Shown here in pieces: positions 1 to 56,871 of a stretch of 64,000 bases of DNA (position 1 is the stretch's first letter; every line of letters starts with the position of its first letter). The translations under genes were made by a program, and so were the position numbers. Where the stretch lies: NCBI GenBank assembly GCA_049296855.1, contig JBAQTF010000015.1, positions 15,112-79,111 of the forward strand. Direction: 5' to 3'. Origin of the DNA: Minisyncoccia bacterium. Lineage in GTDB: Bacteria; Patescibacteriota; Minisyncoccia; Phycocordibacterales; DATDWN01. The notes below the pieces were generated by a model that saw only the letters and a list, made by a program, of their open reading frames with translations, was not told the DNA's origin and ran no database searches.

Positions 1-341
1 CTGGACGTGGAGACCTGACAAAAACTCGCTCATTAGATATTTTAAAAGAAATAAGAAACTCATATGGTAGACGTATGAAACTGGACCAAATCGCTGAAGG
101 CACATTTGGTATAAATAAAAGTGGTAATGGCCTAGAAGCAGTAACTTGGTGGCGGACTGGTGAAATAGAAAAAATACGAAAATATTGTTTGGAAGACGTG
201 AAAATCACAAAAGATGTCTACGAATTTGCAATGAAGCATAATAAATTAATTTTCAAAGAATCTCCTTTTATGAAAGAAATAAAACTCGATACCAAACACT
301 GGGAGCCCCTTCCCGAAGTAAAAACCCAAAGTCTTTTTTAG
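1..341 (+). CDS. C-terminal fragment of an RNase H-like / 3'-5' exonuclease-like protein. The reading frame is open from the window edge, so the 5' end is truncated.
   Basis: The frame is open from position 3 through the stop codon at 339-341. The sequence, including GINKSGNGLEAV..WW and YCLEDVKIT, loosely resembles predicted exonuclease domains. The domain assignment is weak. Confidence 0.35.
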   Translation, partial: GRGDLTKTRSLDILKEIRNSYGRRMKLDQIAEGTFGINKSGNGLEAVTWWRTGEIEKIRKYCLEDVKITKDVYEFAMKHNKLIFKESPFMKEIKLDTKHWEPLPEVKTQSLF

Positions 342-378: not shown

Positions 379-646
379 CCGGCGTCGGTCGGCGTGTCGT
401 CAGTGAACGATTATGATGGAGCTCAGCGCGATGCGCTGCTCCGAGAAGCCGGCAACTGCCGGCGAACCGCGAATCTTCATTTCGCCTCCTTCTCGCCTTT
501 AGCGAGGAATCGACACACGACTGGTGGCTGATCCCGGGCCACTGCCAAGGTATCCGCCTTGAAATGAACAACAATGTAACGCGTTCGGTCTAGCACATTA
601 CTGACTTGACGTGAAGTCTTTTTCGTGTCAAAATCAACCGACTATT
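379..646 (-). ncRNA. Candidate structured non-coding RNA of unassigned class, in a GC-rich island downstream of uppP.
   Basis: The GC-rich core at about 380-600 was not computed; a rough hand count is about 60% GC, against about 37% in the flanks. There is no plus-strand ORF of 60 aa or more, and the only minus-strand ORF (69 aa) is Arg-rich low-complexity. The region ends in an intrinsic terminator on the minus strand at 353-378. Confidence 0.3.
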
Positions 647-1441
647 CTAAAACAAGAGAAAAATGGCTATACTTAGGGCTATTCTGTACAAGATGAAAAT
701 GTCTAAATCATGGTTTTTGAGATATTTTATGAGAAAATCAATAGCAAAGAAACCTGTAATGAAAGCAACTACTGACCCAAGTAAAAGCGACGTACCGAGA
801 CTGGTGGAAAACAATTCGTGACGAACTTCAAGGAGTTTTTTAAGACCTGTACCAAGAAGTATTGGTATCGACAGTAGAAAACTAAACCTAACGATATCTT
901 CTTTTTTTAAATCTGCGATAAATCCACCAGATATTGTTGCACCTGAACGAGAAATCCCAGGAACCAAAGCGAGGCATTGAAAAAAACCTATGACTATTCC
1001 CCTACCAAGCGATAACTCTTTATTTTGTTTTGCAACTTTCTGTGCAAACCAGAATAAAATACTTCCGAGCACTAGAGTTAAAGCAACCAGATGTGTGTTT
1101 CGAAAAACTGTTTCCATTTTACTTTCAAGAAGTAAACCAAAGATAACAGCTGGGAGTGTGCCGAGAACTATGGACCAAATCAATATCTTTTCTTTTTGGT
1201 TTACCACCTGACCTGAAATAATTTTCCAGAAATTGAAAAATATTTCTCGTATATCTTTGCGAAAATAAACTAAAACAGCCAGAGTTGTGGCTAACTGTAA
1301 AATAGCATCGAAAGCCAACTCTCCTGTGCTGTTCTCTCCCAAGATCTGTCTTGCTATTATGAGATGCCCCGAAGACGAAACTGGTATAAACTCTGTTGCC
1401 CCTTGGACAAAACCCAGTACAATTGCTACTAAATAAGTCAT
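647..1441 (-). CDS. uppP: Undecaprenyl-diphosphatase (UppP/BacA family).
   Basis: It carries the BacA motifs GATEFIPVSSSGHLII and PGISRSGATISGG and has multiple TM helices. The likely start is the Met of MTYLVAIVLGF, which is 23 codons downstream of the start of the longest ORF. Confidence 0.85.
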   Translation of the reverse strand: MTYLVAIVLGFVQGATEFIPVSSSGHLIIARQILGENSTGELAFDAILQLATTLAVLVYFRKDIREIFFNFWKIISGQVVNQKEKILIWSIVLGTLPAVIFGLLLESKMETVFRNTHLVALTLVLGSILFWFAQKVAKQNKELSLGRGIVIGFFQCLALVPGISRSGATISGGFIADLKKEDIVRFSFLLSIPILLGTGLKKLLEVRHELFSTSLGTSLLLGSVVAFITGFFAIDFLIKYLKNHDLDIFILYRIALSIAIFLLF

Positions 1442-2173: not shown

Positions 2174-5149
2174 TTATCTTGTTGTTTCTAATAATTTTCG
2201 GTAAGAGCAATATTTGCAGTCTTTATCGTCACAAGTCTTATCCCAAAAAGCAAGACTTGTTATTTCTCTAACGACTCTTTCTATGGTTTTTTTGAGTAAT
2301 TCAACATCACTATCACTTATCTCAAACTCTTCACGATTGTATTTTAGAGAATCATTTGATTCTAGAAATTCAATAATTCCAGATTTCATCTCTATGTCGT
2401 CGTGGAGTGACAAAAGCAACTTATAAAACTGTAGTTGCCTTAACATATCCCCTGTTGAGCTTTTCGTCTTTCCCTCTATATCGTTTCGACTTCGCTGTTT
2501 TCCTGTTTTGTAGTCCGTCACGATAGCTTTTTTTTCAGAAATCATCTCTACTTTATCTAAATTTCCAGAGAGAAGAATGTTTTTAGAAAGCTCTACAGCA
2601 TTTATTTTAAATTCTGGAATTATAGGATTTGTTAGCTTTGGATTAGCCCATTTAAACCAACCGATCAAAGATTTCTGGCCTTTCTTTAGTGCTTCGTCGA
2701 ATTCAGTCTTAGAAAGTACTCCGAGAAGTCCCAAATGTCTTTTGTATGAATCAAGTAAAAACTTCTGGTCAACTTCCCTATCTTTTATAACTCGCCACAG
2801 ATCCTCGACAGAAGCATGCATAGCAATACCATATATCTGATGTTTTTTTGGAGAACTAGGAATTCGCAAGAGGTTTCGGTAGAAATACTTCCATGGACAA
2901 GACAGGTAATTGTTTAAAGCAGTGACAGATAGTGGGTGTGAGTAGAAAAGTTCTCGAACAAAATCTTTGTCGAGCTGTAAAGTACTTGTTGGTTTCCTCT
3001 CAAGAAACAAGACTTCTGGATTGTTTTTGATTTTTTCTGTAAAACTCTTCGTATCTATTATCTCTTTTCTATCTTCTCTTATTTCTAAAACAAAAGGTGA
3101 GACTAACGTTTCCTTGCCGTTTCCATCAAAAGATGAGTATGTGATATAAACAGCTTTTTTGGCTCTCGTAATACAAACGTAGAAAAGTCTTCGCTCATCA
3201 TCTATAGAATTTTTATCACCATCATCTTTACTATCACCTCGACTATAGACTGAAGGCAGAAGTGGTAAATGATCTCTGCCAGATTTTTCACCAAACGAGC
3301 TTTCTGTTGCGTTTATTATAAAAACATATTCGAACTCTAAACCTTTTGAACCATGAGCAGTCATGAGACGAACAGCTTTTTGTCGGACAGAATGTTTCGG
3401 ACGTTTTATAAATAGTTTATGTTCTCGGAGAATATTTACGTATTCCATAAAATCCTTGAACTGTGCTCCTGGCCTGTTTGTAGCAATTCTCTTACCCTCC
3501 TCAAAAAGCCTTTCGATACCCAGGAATGCACCTGCATCTTTCGACGCCATCATTGAATTCAATATCTCCGATTCACGTAGAATTCTTTCTATAAACTCCG
3601 TTAGACTATCACTTTGCGATTGTCTTGCCCAGGATTTCATTTTTATACCAACTTTTCTGATTTTTTCATTATCGGATTTGTTTACCAAATCATATAGAGA
3701 AATTTTTTCTTTAGAAGACCTTGCTATGAGACGGTAACTATCCAGAGGATCAATATCAAACTCATCTATGTGTAACACTGGAACAAAATACTCGTCCTCT
3801 CCGTATCTAAAAATAGCATCAAATACAATCAAAAGTTTCCTAACAAATTTTTCTGCTAACAAATCTTCGTCTGACTCTATAACGTGCGCAACATCTTCTC
3901 TCTCAAGTGCTTCACTCATAGAAAATGATTCTCTATTTCCTCGATATAATATGGCTATTTCTTCTGGAGAAACTTTTTGTTTTTCTATCAAATTTTTTAT
4001 GATTTCTGCAACAAAATGCAACTCATAAGATTTGGTCTCAAACTCAGCAACCTGTATTCCAGTTTTACTTTTATCACCGTTTTCATATTTTAATGCTTTT
4101 GGTGACGGTAATAGTGAATGTGCAGCATCCAAGATATTCTGTACTGAACGATAGTTAGAAGAAAGCTCTATCTCTACTGCCTTCGGATAAAGCTTCTTGA
4201 AATAAAAGAAATTCTCGACTGACGCCCCTTGGAACCGAAAAATAGCCTGTTTTTCGTCCCCCACAATGAAAATGTTAGGATTCTTATGAAAGTCAAGTAA
4301 GAGCTCAATTATGCGGTTCTGAGCGTTGTTTGTGTCCTGGTGTTCATCAACAAGAACATATTGATGGCTTTCCTGGAGGGATAGCTTCAAATCTCCACCT
4401 TTTTCAAGAGCATGTAAAACTTCCATAATCATATCGCTCCAGTCATAGAGTCTCCTTTCTCTTAATATCTTCTGATATGTTTCATAGATAATCGTTAGCT
4501 CTTTATTTTTCTGTATTATTCGTTCAAACTTTTTGTGCTCACTTTTCATCTTACCTTTATAGCTACCTTTTTCGTGGTATAGATCATCTCGATTTTTGAA
4601 TTTTTTTTCTTCTCTCTTTACGATTTTTTCAAAATCCTCTGGAGAAACTCCCTCTCTTTTTAACTCTTCTATTTTTTTATTTATATCTCGCAGATAGTGA
4701 AGAGGCTCACCCCATGGTCGCAATATATCAAGAGTTAGTTTATCCATCAGTTCTTCAAGTATTGATAGGGATTCAACTTCTGTGATATGTGCCGAACCAA
4801 TGATGGTTGGAAAATATTCCGGATAATTTTTTATTATATTATTACAAAAAGAATGAAAAGTTTCTATAACAACTCGGTACGCAGATGCCCCAATGAGTTG
4901 TGAAAGTCTGCGTCGCATATTAGTTCCAGCAGAATCTGTAAAAGTCAGAGCGAGAATATTCTCTGGCGCAGTATCAGTTTTTTTTAAAATGTTTGCAATT
5001 CTTAGTGTTAGTATCTCCGTCTTCCCCGTTCCCGGACCAGCCACAACAAGCACGGGACCGTCGATAGTATCTACAGCCTTTTTCTGCTCAGTATTAAGGT
5101 TTTTATAACGTTCTGTAAAAAATTTATTTAAATCTTTATCGGATGACAT
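2174..5149 (-). CDS. UvrD/PcrA/AddA-like ATP-dependent DNA helicase fused to a C-terminal PD-(D/E)xK-type nuclease domain with a Cys cluster (Cas4/AddB-like).
   Basis: The N-terminus reads VVAGPGTGKTEILT (Walker A), with a later VLVDEHQDTN motif and a UvrD-like layout. The C-terminus ends ...DKDCKYCSYRK, a Cys cluster typical of Fe-S nuclease domains. Confidence 0.8.
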   Translation of the reverse strand: MSSDKDLNKFFTERYKNLNTEQKKAVDTIDGPVLVVAGPGTGKTEILTLRIANILKKTDTAPENILALTFTDSAGTNMRRRLSQLIGASAYRVVIETFHSFCNNIIKNYPEYFPTIIGSAHITEVESLSILEELMDKLTLDILRPWGEPLHYLRDINKKIEELKREGVSPEDFEKIVKREEKKFKNRDDLYHEKGSYKGKMKSEHKKFERIIQKNKELTIIYETYQKILRERRLYDWSDMIMEVLHALEKGGDLKLSLQESHQYVLVDEHQDTNNAQNRIIELLLDFHKNPNIFIVGDEKQAIFRFQGASVENFFYFKKLYPKAVEIELSSNYRSVQNILDAAHSLLPSPKALKYENGDKSKTGIQVAEFETKSYELHFVAEIIKNLIEKQKVSPEEIAILYRGNRESFSMSEALEREDVAHVIESDEDLLAEKFVRKLLIVFDAIFRYGEDEYFVPVLHIDEFDIDPLDSYRLIARSSKEKISLYDLVNKSDNEKIRKVGIKMKSWARQSQSDSLTEFIERILRESEILNSMMASKDAGAFLGIERLFEEGKRIATNRPGAQFKDFMEYVNILREHKLFIKRPKHSVRQKAVRLMTAHGSKGLEFEYVFIINATESSFGEKSGRDHLPLLPSVYSRGDSKDDGDKNSIDDERRLFYVCITRAKKAVYITYSSFDGNGKETLVSPFVLEIREDRKEIIDTKSFTEKIKNNPEVLFLERKPTSTLQLDKDFVRELFYSHPLSVTALNNYLSCPWKYFYRNLLRIPSSPKKHQIYGIAMHASVEDLWRVIKDREVDQKFLLDSYKRHLGLLGVLSKTEFDEALKKGQKSLIGWFKWANPKLTNPIIPEFKINAVELSKNILLSGNLDKVEMISEKKAIVTDYKTGKQRSRNDIEGKTKSSTGDMLRQLQFYKLLLSLHDDIEMKSGIIEFLESNDSLKYNREEFEISDSDVELLKKTIERVVREITSLAFWDKTCDDKDCKYCSYRKLLETTR

Positions 5150-18097: not shown

Positions 18098-18126
18098 GTT
18101 TAGTGAACTACAGTTCACCTGTCAAT
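18098..18126 (-). promoter_or_regulatory. Promoter of the lexA operon with a Cheo-type LexA box in the spacer: -35 TTGACA (18126-18121), 17-nt spacer, -10 TAAACT (18103-18098).
   Basis: Read on the minus strand, the site is TTGACA-g-GTGAACTGTAGTTCAC-TAAACT. The palindrome GTGAAC-N4-GTTCAC at 18104-18119 matches the GAAC-N4-GTTC SOS-box class. Confidence 0.55.
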
Positions 18127-18217
18127 GAACCTGTTGTGGATAACTTTTCTAGACAATCTATATACTATATTGACAACAACACTAAACTGCTGTAATTTTA
18201 TTGTCAGAGAGGTAAAT

Positions 18218-18535
18218 ATGAATGCTTTAGATCTGGTAAGAAAAACAGAGCAAATGCTCGTCGATGGTGGAATCCAGAAGTACGACCACGGCAAACGTGG
18301 TTACACTGTCATCGGAGACTTCCCGAAACAGACTCCGTCAGTATTGATGTCAACACCAAAGTTTGGTGTTGCCGCTATACCAACTGGGTGTGACTCTGTC
18401 GGAGAGAAACTCGACGAGGTTGAGAGATACCTGAAAATCCTCAACGAGAACGGAGTCCCTGCTGAACCAGTGATACGTAAGGATGAAGACGACGCCATCA
18501 TCTTTGCGTGGATACCAACATCGGAGCAGGAATGA
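18218..18535 (+). CDS. Hypothetical 105-aa protein, transcribed divergently from the lexA operon.
   Basis: An RBS (GAGAGG) precedes the ATG at 18218. A -35 TTGACA and -10 TAATTT lie upstream, and a terminator follows at 18550-18590. Confidence 0.5.
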   Translation: MNALDLVRKTEQMLVDGGIQKYDHGKRGYTVIGDFPKQTPSVLMSTPKFGVAAIPTGCDSVGEKLDEVERYLKILNENGVPAEPVIRKDEDDAIIFAWIPTSEQE

Positions 18536-18711: not shown

Positions 18712-19251
18712 TCACGATGCAAGTGGTGATAACAGGTACGGCCTGTCGCGAAGATCGCGACTTAGTCGAGCATGACGCTTACGCCACGGCTCAAAATCTC
18801 GAGCAATCGCGTTGAGAAGACGTGCCTTTGGAAGAGAAGTTTCACGAGCCGCAGCACGAATGAAAAAGCTCGTACCATGCTTGGAATACCACCCGATGTT
18901 GTGTCGGCAACGCATCTGGTTTTCGAAAAATCCTGACATGAGCAAACACTGTGCACCAGCCACCTCTAGTGTCTCACCGTCGTACAGGAGATCCTTGTCA
19001 CAGACGAACCGATCGAACACCACACTGAGATTCGCTGGTACTGGAAAATCCACCGAAGAACAAGTCGAGACCTGAGCATAATGTGCAAGCACACTAGCAT
19101 TGTACAAGAGTTCCTGTTGATCAACTTGAGACTCGCAGACATCTAGCAGATTGACTGCGAAGAATTTCACAGTCTGTATGTGATCAGACTGTAAAAGTTC
19201 CCGAAGTTCACTGTCCATGACTGCCTCCATTCCAAAAATTACATTCTGCAT
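18712..19251 (-). CDS. Hypothetical 179-aa protein, with elevated GC.
   Basis: This is a long ORF with roughly 50% GC in a roughly 37% GC genome. I recognise no motif. Confidence 0.45.
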   Translation of the reverse strand: MQNVIFGMEAVMDSELRELLQSDHIQTVKFFAVNLLDVCESQVDQQELLYNASVLAHYAQVSTCSSVDFPVPANLSVVFDRFVCDKDLLYDGETLEVAGAQCLLMSGFFENQMRCRHNIGWYSKHGTSFFIRAAARETSLPKARLLNAIARDFEPWRKRHARLSRDLRDRPYLLSPLAS

Positions 19252-19287: not shown

Positions 19288-19313
19288 CACCACAAGGGCA
19301 CTTCTTGTGTTTC
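19288..19313. repeat. A CACCACAAGGGCACTTCTTGTGTTTC repeat copy that forms a small hairpin (CACAAG/CTTGTG).
   Basis: It is a member of the dispersed repeat family and lies in the 61-nt gap between two minus-strand genes. Confidence 0.5.
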
Positions 19314-19609
19314 TAATTCGCTTCGTCCATAAGAAAACAAAGTCGCATTTTTTCCACACGTGACAATTTTTTAATCCGATATTCTTCTTTTGAGGCCACC
19401 CTGCGGTTACGGAACTTTTTTGAAAAGACAATTTTTACCGGTCTACGAGCTCTGGTGTATTTTGCACCGAGTTTAGTGGAATTATGTTCACGAATTCTCC
19501 TTTTTAAATCAACTGTGATACCTGTGTAGAGAGTTTTATCGGCGCATAGGAGTATGTAGATATAATACATAAGTCCATTATAGCTTTTGTACACAAAATT
19601 TAAGTCCAA
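19313..19609 (-). CDS. Small protein with a GIY-YIG nuclease domain (YhbQ/UPF0213-like).
   Basis: The sequence YIYILLCADKTLYTGITVDLKRRIREHN is a canonical GIY-YIG N-terminal half. The true start may be the Met of MYYIYI, at about 19570. Confidence 0.7.
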   Translation of the reverse strand: MDLNFVYKSYNGLMYYIYILLCADKTLYTGITVDLKRRIREHNSTKLGAKYTRARRPVKIVFSKKFRNRRVASKEEYRIKKLSRVEKMRLCFLMDEAN

Positions 19610-19617
19610 AATACTAC

Positions 19618-19646
19618 TTGACAGATACTATTAAATATGTTAACGT
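19618..19646 (+). promoter_or_regulatory. Promoter-like element: TTGACA, 17-nt spacer, then TAACGT.
   Basis: It reads TTGACA-gatactattaaatatgt-TAACGT and lies 18 nt upstream of a GGAGG RBS at 19654-19658. Confidence 0.35.
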
Positions 19647-19664
19647 AGACAGCGGAGGTCAGAT

Positions 19665-19868
19665 ATGCCAGCATTAAACAGTCCCCGTAAGATCGGGCAC
19701 GCCATCTCGGGATTCGTCCCTATCCCCGTGACCATCACGGCGAAAAAGGGAGTTGAGATGGCCACGACAACTCCGTGGCGAGATCCGAGAGTTCCACGTA
19801 TGCGAGCCTGGAGCGCAATGGTGCCGAGCAAGGCGCCCATCGCCTACGGGTTCGAGATCTCGCACTAA
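19665..19868 (+). CDS. GC-rich 67-aa hypothetical protein, which could alternatively be a structured RNA.
   Basis: A perfect GGAGG RBS sits 6 nt before the ATG. The coding region has elevated GC. It has its own promoter-like element and a terminator at 19909-19947, and I find no family match. Confidence 0.4.
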   Translation: MPALNSPRKIGHAISGFVPIPVTITAKKGVEMATTTPWRDPRVPRMRAWSAMVPSKAPIAYGFEISH

Positions 19869-19908
19869 GTCTGCATCACCCATCCCACCCCACATCCACG
19901 CAAGACAA

Positions 19909-19947
19909 AAGCCGTTCGACTAACAATCGGACGGCTTCTTCCATTTT
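19909..19947 (+). terminator. Intrinsic terminator, possibly bidirectional.
   Basis: The stem AAGCCGTTCGA/TCGGACGGCTT contains one G-U pair and is followed by CTTCCATTTT. Confidence 0.5.
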
Positions 19948-19967: not shown

Positions 19968-20285
19968 TTATTTAGCTTTCACCGCCCCTGTTGTAACTGT
20001 TGCTGGAATAGTTTGAGTAAACATCATCGGACCTCCTGCACCCACCCAATCAGCTTGTCCTCTGTACATCATATTTCTGTAACCATATCCGGATGAACCG
20101 CCGAGTTCAGATTTCAATTCACCAACTTTCATTCCTATTGAGAAAACCCATGAGATAATAATAATGCCGAGTATCCATCTCAAAATATGTCCACCGCCAA
20201 AACCACATGCATGACCACAAGTTCCACATCGACCATAACCCGATCCACAAACTTCACAAGCATTTTTATTATGATTAGCTTCCAT
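19968..20285 (-). CDS. Small membrane protein of 105 aa with a Cys-rich N-terminal head and a Gly-rich C-terminal tail.
   Basis: The head NACEVCGSGYGRCGTCGHACGFGGGH is followed by a TM helix ILRWILGIIIISWVFSIGM and a Gly/Tyr-rich tail. It may bind metal. Confidence 0.45.
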   Translation of the reverse strand: MEANHNKNACEVCGSGYGRCGTCGHACGFGGGHILRWILGIIIISWVFSIGMKVGELKSELGGSSGYGYRNMMYRGQADWVGAGGPMMFTQTIPATVTTGAVKAK

Positions 20286-56795: not shown

Positions 56796-56871
56796 TGGAG
56801 CCACCTGTCAGGTTCGAACTGACGACCTGCCGTTTACAAAACGGCTGCTCTACCAACTGAGCTAAGGTGGC
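56796..56871 (-). tRNA. tRNA-Thr, anticodon UGU.
   Basis: Hand-folded as a cloverleaf, it has an acceptor stem GCCACCT/AGGTGGC, D-arm GCTC/GAGC, anticodon stem GCCGT/ACGGC with loop TTTGTAA, T-arm GTCAG-TTCGAAC-CTGAC, and an encoded CCA. Confidence 0.85.

Follow-up and report, generated by a model that had tools for sequence, protein, structure and literature searches.

A GC-rich island (positions 379-646, minus strand) lies downstream of the undecaprenyl-diphosphatase gene uppP in a 64,000-nucleotide stretch (contig JBAQTF010000015.1, positions 15,112 to 79,111; hereafter the window) of a Minisyncoccia (Patescibacteria) metagenome-assembled genome, and we consider it, on balance, probably an accessory, moron-like micro-gene cassette whose predicted product would be a peptide of 26 aa, conserved in its N-terminal heptapeptide. 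The island is one variant of a swappable GC-rich slot present in related Patescibacteria. Its atypical composition, a Shine-Dalgarno (SD) sequence followed by a short open reading frame (sORF), codon periodicity, homology of the promoter and of the sORF start with two related loci (L092 and L175; L-numbers denote loci retrieved via UppP homologues), presence or absence among relatives, and replacement of the cargo are all directly observed. An earlier note on this DNA had taken the island for a structured RNA without coding function and similar to RNase P; it was right about the strand, about the intrinsic terminator and about the existence of a discrete unit 3' of uppP, and wrong about the class.

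The GC fraction of the island amounts to 0.577 over positions 379-600 and 0.611 over 381-560 (0.545 for 379-646 entire, with only 39% GC in its outermost 46 nt, 601-646), against 37.7% for the 64-kb window (220-nt windows: mean 0.377, sd 0.052, max 0.609). The 58-61% measured over the span 351-600 bears out the hand estimate in the earlier note of about 60% GC over roughly 220 nt in a genome of about 37%. A GC fraction of at least 0.55 over 220 nt is reached at just two sites in the 64 kb (the uppP island and ~19.65-19.9 kb), and the base counts of the island (A = T = 0.21) show no A-depletion. The island sits between two convergent genes, i.e. uppP (647-1441, minus strand, 264 aa, from the open reading frame (ORF) list; PF02673/BacA on identical and related proteins) and a gene for an RNase H-like/PolB-exo-like exonuclease (3-341, plus strand; PF10108 and PF13482, both below threshold on this fragment), the 3' end of which forms the other border of the slot and full-length orthologues of which carry annotation in the loci of relatives. 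Since the island is base-for-base the same in two independently assembled Logan contigs from other runs (three assemblies with the window), it is not an assembly artefact; gene callers left it without a gene in two public assemblies.

Read along the minus strand, the cassette opens with a -35-like hexamer (TTCACG, 615-610), which sequence reading and alignment with L092 and L175 identify as orthologous to the TTGAC[AGT] of the relatives, and continues after 17 nt with an extended -10 element (596-587; TG at 595-594, TAGACC at 592-587, without the final T of TAnnnT), the whole spanning 615-587 and having, by homology, putative promoter activity. It is succeeded by a GC-rich leader of ~100 nt (581-481; a 5' untranslated region, or the uppP-sORF spacer if the two are co-transcribed), which contains local hairpins (e.g. 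CUCGC-UAAAG-GCGAG), is unalignable with relatives and lacks sustained codon periodicity. A Shine-Dalgarno AGGAGG (490-485) lies 4 nt 5' of the ATG of an sORF of 26 codons plus TGA (480-400; MKIRGSPAVAGFSEQRIALSSIIIVH), delimited by the ORF list, codon periodicity and homology of its start, with the segment MKIRGSPAVAGFSEQR in its predicted product, an in-frame stop 7 codons 5' of its ATG, and its own stop codon (402-400) 21 nt from the terminator stem. The statement that neither strand holds a credible ORF thus gives way to a 26-codon frame behind a canonical AGGAGG. The terminator scan recovered the perfect 10-bp hairpin and T-run described earlier at 353-378 (stem 378-369/362-353, 6-nt loop GUAAAA, followed by TTTTCTATT at 352-344; whole element 378-344), which adjoins the stop codon of the convergent exonuclease gene. 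Because the same scan gave no terminator from the end of uppP onward (647-380), the uppP mRNA of the window probably extends through the cassette as its 3' part, with the hairpin at 378-353 probably doubling as the uppP terminator. A plus-strand promoter-like match (606-634; TTGACG-17-CAAAAT, with TG) also lies within the cassette promoter region, pointing antisense into uppP, and is probably a by-product of partly palindromic sequence.

The retrieved loci (which include no relative with a UppP identity between 71% and 100%) have in many cases the gene order UvrD-like helicase, dsbA, uppP, GC-rich island, convergent exonuclease and hisS. Islands occupy the slot in L001, L083, L084, L085, L087, L088, L090, L091, L092, L093, L171 and L173, with L175 as the thirteenth; the islands of the first twelve are 200-1100 nt long and reach 55-80% GC in host genomes of 36-43% GC. 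In the relatives, the island starts with a near-consensus promoter (TTGAC[AGT]-16/18-TAnnnT, mostly with the extended -10 TG) and ends in GC-rich terminator hairpins equivalent to that of the window. Two types of cargo were observed: an ORF of ~200 aa with strong codon periodicity (GC fractions at codon positions one to three, GC1/2/3, of ~0.64/0.40/0.77), and SD-led sORFs of 6-47 codons. The ~200-aa protein shows 23-35% identity among L001, L085 and L087 (vs ~70% for the adjacent UppP), has five members only in 5.8 billion protein clusters and reaches no Pfam family above threshold; its AlphaFold2 model is helical (pLDDT 83) and matched no fold in the PDB. Furthermore, in L169 (2793-2806) and L170, whose UppP is 69% identical to that of the window, the slot is empty and 8 nt separate the uppP and exonuclease stop codons. 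Two more distant relatives (UppP 53% identical) carry GC-richer ORFans on the opposite strand after uppP (L107, 3290-3770, minus, ~150 aa; L110, 3395-3760, minus, ~100 aa), each with an SD sequence, so that in this group genes of atypical composition seem generally to land 3' of uppP. Blastn searches against INPHARED and PLSDB returned only stretches of 27-54 nt (9-17% of the query), mostly terminator, which we take as chance matches; PHROGs gave marginal and inconsistent matches of unknown function for the larger ORFans (best E = 0.0004), and IMG/VR gave nothing. A phage, plasmid or viral origin accordingly finds no support in these four resources, and in the literature searched, such cassettes had not been described for Patescibacteria.

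The coding character of the sORFs is apparent from their codon composition. In the window sORF, GC1/2/3 are 0.54/0.46/0.77, an excess at third positions (GC3) that ranks 2/155 among same-length placements within the cassette. When the eight SD-led sORFs of the slot were pooled (GC1/2/3 = 0.56/0.52/0.84, T = 0.30), their GC3 excess was reached in 0/20,000 random placements in the same cassettes (mean 0.001, sd 0.065), and a sliding-window phase analysis followed the annotated ORFs. Searches of Pfam, NCBIfam and Rfam returned nothing for the sORF family, and the 69-, 45- and 39-aa frames of the window island gave nothing against Pfam. Decay from the ~200-aa slot protein or from a Pfam family was rejected as an origin, six-frame blastp against L001 and Pfam being null and an in-frame stop lying upstream. 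A type I toxin was likewise rejected (most of the slot sORF peptides are hydrophilic), as was a precursor of a ribosomally synthesized and post-translationally modified peptide (the conserved neighbourhood is devoid of a modifying enzyme).

The slot sORFs resemble each other at their N-termini only, where they follow the pattern M-[KR]-hydrophobic-x(0-3)-[SG]-P-P. The N-termini are MMKVIFWSPPVAG... in L088, MKFADNSPPSAG... in L083, MRFHSPPQGG... in L087, MRFDLGPPNS... in L173, MRLHGPPTA... in L175, MRNWYDTSPERAN... in L084 and MKIRGSPAVAG... in the window, and three sORFs are so short that they can be given entire (MKNKSPPSK* in L173, MGRSPP* in L085 and MNIRGAPGCR* in L092). A [SGA]PP tripeptide within the first 11 residues characterizes 8/18 sense-strand SD-ATG starts as compared to 3/193 control starts (Fisher 7e-8), and 7/16 unique motif matches in the 915 kb of fetched DNA fall inside the ~4 kb of slot cassettes. 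The codons ahead of Pro-Pro vary (AGC, AGT, TCT, TCA, TCC, GGT or GGA) and CCGCCG lies in the Pro-Pro frame of an SD-led ATG in 7/7 cases; both observations point to a constraint on the peptide. A hairpin of the form CCGCC...GGCGG overlaps the motif in the window, L088, L087 and L092, while L175 keeps G-P-P without it.

The cassette closest to that of the window is found in L092, with which nhmmer aligns it along the whole length (E = 0.004); visual comparison locates the conservation in the promoter region (GATTTTGACACGAAAAAGACTTCACG...TGTGCTAGACC in the window vs GATTTCGACACAAAAATCACTTGACG...TGTGCTACGAT in L092) and the first 11 codons, with the common ORF start ATGAAsATTCGmGGnnCGCCGG..GTTGCCGG. 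L175 (76% UppP identity with L092) shares this upstream region and continues with MRLHGPP, and these first 11 sORF codons are the sole transcribed part that the window conserves with both loci. The window N-terminus MKIRGSPA agrees with L175 MRLHGPP and L092 MNIRGAP at its basic, hydrophobic, basic, G, S and P positions and has Ala where the second Pro would be. The L092 ORF is thrown out of frame by a 2-nt indel after codon 7 and stops at 10 codons, so that the C-terminal part of the window peptide is not conserved.

The turnover of the cargo can be followed among closer pairs of relatives. L084 and L085 (UppP 95% identical, four-fold degenerate sites 78% identical) carry behind an orthologous promoter a cassette with a 46-codon sORF and an ORF of ~205 aa plus MGRSPP*, respectively; the pair is a genuine cargo replacement, and the sole pair that shows one. 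In L083, L088 and L173 (UppP 81% identical), a region of ~220 nt, AT-rich and located 5' of the promoter, is ~90% identical, and similarity collapses at the -10 element/transcription start site. As the four-fold degenerate sites of uppP are only ~50% identical among these three loci, the loss of cargo alignment is what weak constraint would be expected to produce; hypermutation was rejected as the cause, such sites being near saturation. What does surprise is that the region 5' of the promoter is so well kept. The AT-rich, non-coding stretch itself, from the uppP stop to the cassette promoter (L083 3290-3512, L088 3290-3512, L173 2790-3010; columns 1-222 of alignment A4), is absent from the window, and as it outdoes the neighbouring coding sequence in conservation, it is probably functional, as a regulatory region or an unrecognized RNA. 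A further observation concerns the motif CTTATTTTAAGCCATATTTT, which occurs 100-200 nt 3' of the present uppP stop in L090 (~3345-3365), L092 (~1135-1160), L093 (~3365-3385), L110 (~3905-3925) and L175 (~1955-1985), and which in L171 (2795-2820) forms the true end of uppP (…S L F stop) together with the bases 3' of it. The motif resembles a remnant of a former uppP 3' end, and suggests past insertion or replacement events there.

Taken together, these observations lead us to propose a cassette consisting, in order, of a weakened sigma-70-type promoter (615-587), a leader of ~100 nt, AGGAGG, the ORF (480-400) and the terminator (378-344), which would be transcribed also, or mainly, as the tail of the uppP mRNA (L085, unlike the window, has a terminator between uppP and the cassette). 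We infer that the transcript would be translated into a micro-protein, of which the N-terminus alone (M-K-I-R-G-S-P, a variant of the family motif) is the conserved part and which may be functional. The GC-richness would then derive from a GC3-rich codon style and from GC-rich untranslated regions common to the cargo of the slot, and not from the structural needs of an RNA. By analogy with known stalling peptides, conservation of the N-terminus only, combined with a freely varying ORF length, suggests that translation through S/G-Pro-Pro is the functional act, or else that the heptapeptide is a recognition tag.

Several points weigh against this interpretation. The ORF has just 26 codons and its periodicity, taken alone, is modest (Fisher p = 0.02); in the cassettes of L090, L093 and L171 (among others of the set not showing this) periodicity is weak or absent and the motif is lacking; and the N-terminal motif was spotted before it was tested, though the rule applied in the test is itself objective. 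The window peptide reads S-P-A and not S-P-P (seven relatives have [SG]-P-P), and GTTGCCGG is kept through the L092 frameshift, so that the conservation of this stretch could be at the RNA and not at the peptide level. Moreover, the -10 element TAGACC lacks an otherwise invariant T, so that the cassette's own promoter may be dead. Finally, the interpretation does not account for the lasting GC-richness of the slot cargo in AT-rich genomes; candidate causes are that cassettes are exchanged within a pool that is itself GC-rich, that a recombination hot spot converts sequence with a GC bias, or that selection favours stable RNA.

The possibility that the window copy is a decayed, non-functional remnant of a slot cassette, by now GC-rich filler plus a uppP terminator, overlaps with the micro-gene cassette and differs from it on function; we hold it to be possible, if doubtful. 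Among the 13 cassettes, TTCACG at -35 and a -10 (TAGACC) devoid of the final T occur in the window copy alone, the second Pro is missing from it (as also in the L092 and L084 copies, the window peptide having S-P-A), and on account of the loss of the -35 G, the -10 final T and the second Pro it may be decaying. In line with such a decay, the window island is the shortest of the set, the ORF of its closest relative, L092, is frameshifted and has 10 codons, and the slot can stand empty. On the other hand, the SD sequence, ATG, ORF and terminator are all intact, the sequence is the same in three assemblies, read-through from uppP can still express the cassette, and there has been little drift toward the 38% GC of the genome (GC3 is still 0.77 and GC 58-61%). 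The departures of the window copy suggest relaxed constraint, and the intact signals and undiminished GC argue against a long-dead copy. The cassette could also be a cis-regulatory proline-codon leader ORF (similar to mgtP/mgtL), in which pausing at S/G-P-P would alter folding or the efficiency of the terminator and thereby control antisense read-through into exonuclease-hisS or the stability of the uppP mRNA tail, an explanation drawn from analogy that we regard as very unlikely. It would fit the conservation of the first 7-10 codons alone in ORFs of 6-47 codons (the pattern expected of a regulatory nascent peptide), the 14-21 nt that separate stop codon and terminator stem in the window, in L173 ORF2 and in L085b, and the consecutive Pro codons, a known stalling signal (mgtP attenuator, PMC3641672). 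However, a classical attenuator is disfavoured because no same-orientation gene follows at any locus, the terminator directly meeting the convergent stop codon; besides, the stop-to-terminator distance is not conserved (14 to ~210 nt), the window copy holds one Pro only, and inspection by eye of the minimum free energy (MFE) folds revealed no alternative antiterminator pairing.

Two further explanations place the function in the RNA. A non-coding structured small RNA (trans-acting or of another class), with the short ORF incidental to it, is quite unlikely in our judgement. It draws on the GC-rich region with its several perfect local hairpins, on a fold z-score of -4.5 to -4.8 for the transcribed strand with terminator (antisense -5.5), on the recurrence in several relatives, as CCGCC...GGCGG, of the hairpin at codons 6-11, and on the survival of GTTGCCGG in the frameshifted L092. 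Once the terminator is removed, though, the z-score of the transcribed strand falls to -1.59 (12/200 shuffles being as good) and the antisense folds at least as well (-2.52). Excess RNA structure was on this ground rejected, as its signal is gone after removal of the terminator, and the fold stability of the island is what any sequence of such GC content would show. L175, moreover, has G-P-P without the hairpin, CCGCCG stands in the Pro-Pro frame in 7/7 cases, GC3 periodicity tracks the ORFs, and neither an Rfam match nor an alignable conserved structure was found among the relatives at the orthologous position. There, the earlier claim of a structured RNA is met by a position that is either empty or filled with unalignable GC-rich cargo bearing clear coding signatures. 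A miniature or degenerate bacterial RNase P RNA, to which the earlier note had loosely compared the island, is vanishingly improbable and, within what sequences can show, refuted. RNase P RNA is an essential, two-domain RNA of 330-400 nt whose long-range P4 helix is formed by the conserved-region strands CR-I and CR-V, and since it is essential, a position that is empty in L169/L170 or differently filled in other relatives makes it practically impossible. Its only point in favour is the loose likeness of two short segments to P4 strands. These lie 70 nt apart (542-530 and 459-441), have the palindromic CCGG alone in common and sit each inside a separate local hairpin in both the MFE and the centroid structures; the segment likened to the P4 3' strand coincides with a self-complementary hairpin (GCCGGC-AGUU-GCCGGC, 463-448, minus strand) within sORF codons 6-11. 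The whole unit measures at most 240 nt, and an SD-led ORF with codon periodicity occupies the region.

The covariance-model scan that had been suggested for RNaseP_bact_a/b, 6S RNA, transfer-messenger RNA (tmRNA) and signal recognition particle (SRP) RNA returned none of them: at gathering thresholds, cmscan of the whole window gave a tRNA at 56.8 kb as its sole match, and cmscan of positions 250-800 (551 nt) with permissive filters (E ≤ 10) gave only noise, without RNase P (RNaseP_bact_a/b), 6S or tmRNA. The sole SRP-related match in 250-800 was a Plant_SRP fragment of 17 nt (9.5 bits), ARAGORN found nothing on the island, and no Rfam family, riboswitches included, matched the window island or the 13-18 related loci. 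TmRNA, SRP RNA and 6S RNA are excluded by the absent Rfam matches together with the empty ARAGORN result. Retrons, diversity-generating retroelements, group II introns and omega-RNAs were also rejected (no reverse transcriptase, IscB or TnpB nearby, no A-depletion and no Rfam match).

Going beyond the micro-gene cassette, the slot could be a dedicated expression site of a Minisyncoccia clade, with a conserved strong promoter and terminator, a rapidly exchanged GC-rich cargo, and the S/G-Pro-Pro heptapeptide as a pausing or targeting signal of an undescribed micro-protein system, of which the window would hold a possibly fading allele. We give a small chance to this scenario, in which the host-unlike codon style would be kept by selection or biased recombination (e.g. 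for RNA stability or for interaction with a GC-rich host or phage).

Elsewhere in the window, a second GC-rich island (19619-19945, plus strand; 220-nt GC maximum 0.609) has the same architecture as the uppP island: TTGACA-17-TAACGT (19619-19647), GGAGG, a 67-aa ORF (19665-19868; MPALNSPRKIGH...; GC1/2/3 0.52/0.57/0.70) and a hairpin with T-run (~19900-19945). It is flanked by a GIY-YIG nuclease gene (19313-19609, minus) and a Gly/Cys-rich 105-aa ORF (19968-20285, minus). The 67-aa ORF found no match in PHROGs; in an exhaustive phmmer search its residues 2-28 matched repeat units of large proteins rich in Listeria-Bacteroides repeats (PF09479), a match which could mean that the ORF stems from a gene fragment, or which could have a score inflated by repeats. 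Two nearby ORFans (18125-18535, plus, 136 aa; 18712-19251, minus, 179 aa) have ~52% GC over 150-nt windows, no Pfam match and a single marginal match in PHROGs (E = 0.045, 179-aa ORF), and form with the 19.6-kb cassette a small region of atypical composition. The tRNA gene recovered by cmscan (56799-56871, minus, 69.6 bits) is the sole Rfam gathering-level match in the 64 kb.

For annotation, these results remove a false lead: RNase P RNA, 6S RNA and tmRNA are not to be sought in the island. The premise that GC spikes in AT-rich reduced genomes mark structured RNAs does not hold reliably: the top two spikes of the 64 kb each contain an SD-led short ORF, the first of which gene callers missed. 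The locus exposes, in an uncultivated symbiotic lineage, a recurrent and swappable slot for GC-rich micro-genes with a conserved N-terminal Ser/Gly-Pro-Pro signature. Should the peptides or their translation be functional, the slot would offer a tractable handle on strain-level variation in Patescibacteria and would bear on the persistence of foreign-looking, GC-rich codon usage in AT-rich genomes; the immediate significance is modest, as the window copy may be decaying.

Among known systems, the moron concept (PMC3594210) matches the island in architecture and in presence/absence behaviour. Like a moron, it is a compact unit between unrelated genes, with its own intrinsic terminator, a composition sharply unlike that of its flanks and ORFan cargo, and it is present, absent or swapped among close relatives; an own promoter is clear in 12 relatives, and the putative one of the window (TTCACG-17-TAGACC) appears homologous, without the T at -7, to the strong promoters of L092 and L175, the latter of which reads TTGACA-17-TATACT. 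Unlike a moron, it resides in no prophage (its flanks are uppP, dsbA, the UvrD-like helicase, the exonuclease and hisS) and shows no similarity in the phage, plasmid and IMG/VR searches; the slot itself seems to own the conserved promoter and the sequence 5' of it, the transcribed cargo alone changing; and even across long divergence the AT-rich genomes keep a GC-rich pool of cargo. The leader mgtP of Salmonella mgtCBR, a proline-codon leader-ORF attenuator with Pro-codon pausing (PMC3641672) and coupling dependent on elongation factor P (PMC5021804), resembles the slot sORFs in being an SD-led, very short ORF with conserved consecutive Pro codons in a structured leader near a terminator. It differs in that the slot has no regulated downstream gene, the motif stands at codons 5-9 and not 10-12, the window has a single Pro, and mutually exclusive stem-loops are not evident by eye in the MFE folds. 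With RNase P RNA (RF00010/RF00011) the island shares GC-richness against an AT-rich genome and CCGG-containing segments, but it fails all the defining features checked (covariance model, P4 and conservation). Bacterial small-protein genes (sORFs of at most 50 codons) and dual-function small RNAs likewise have a short SD-led ORF in a short, terminated transcript that annotation misses; the slot family differs in being conserved in its N-terminal heptapeptide only and in having a codon style foreign to the host genome. Seen beside these systems, the feature of the window may be an unannotated small-protein cassette in a variable islet; taken whole, the slot may merit closer study than that, given its conserved promoter, the swapping of its GC-rich cargo and its S/G-P-P signature.

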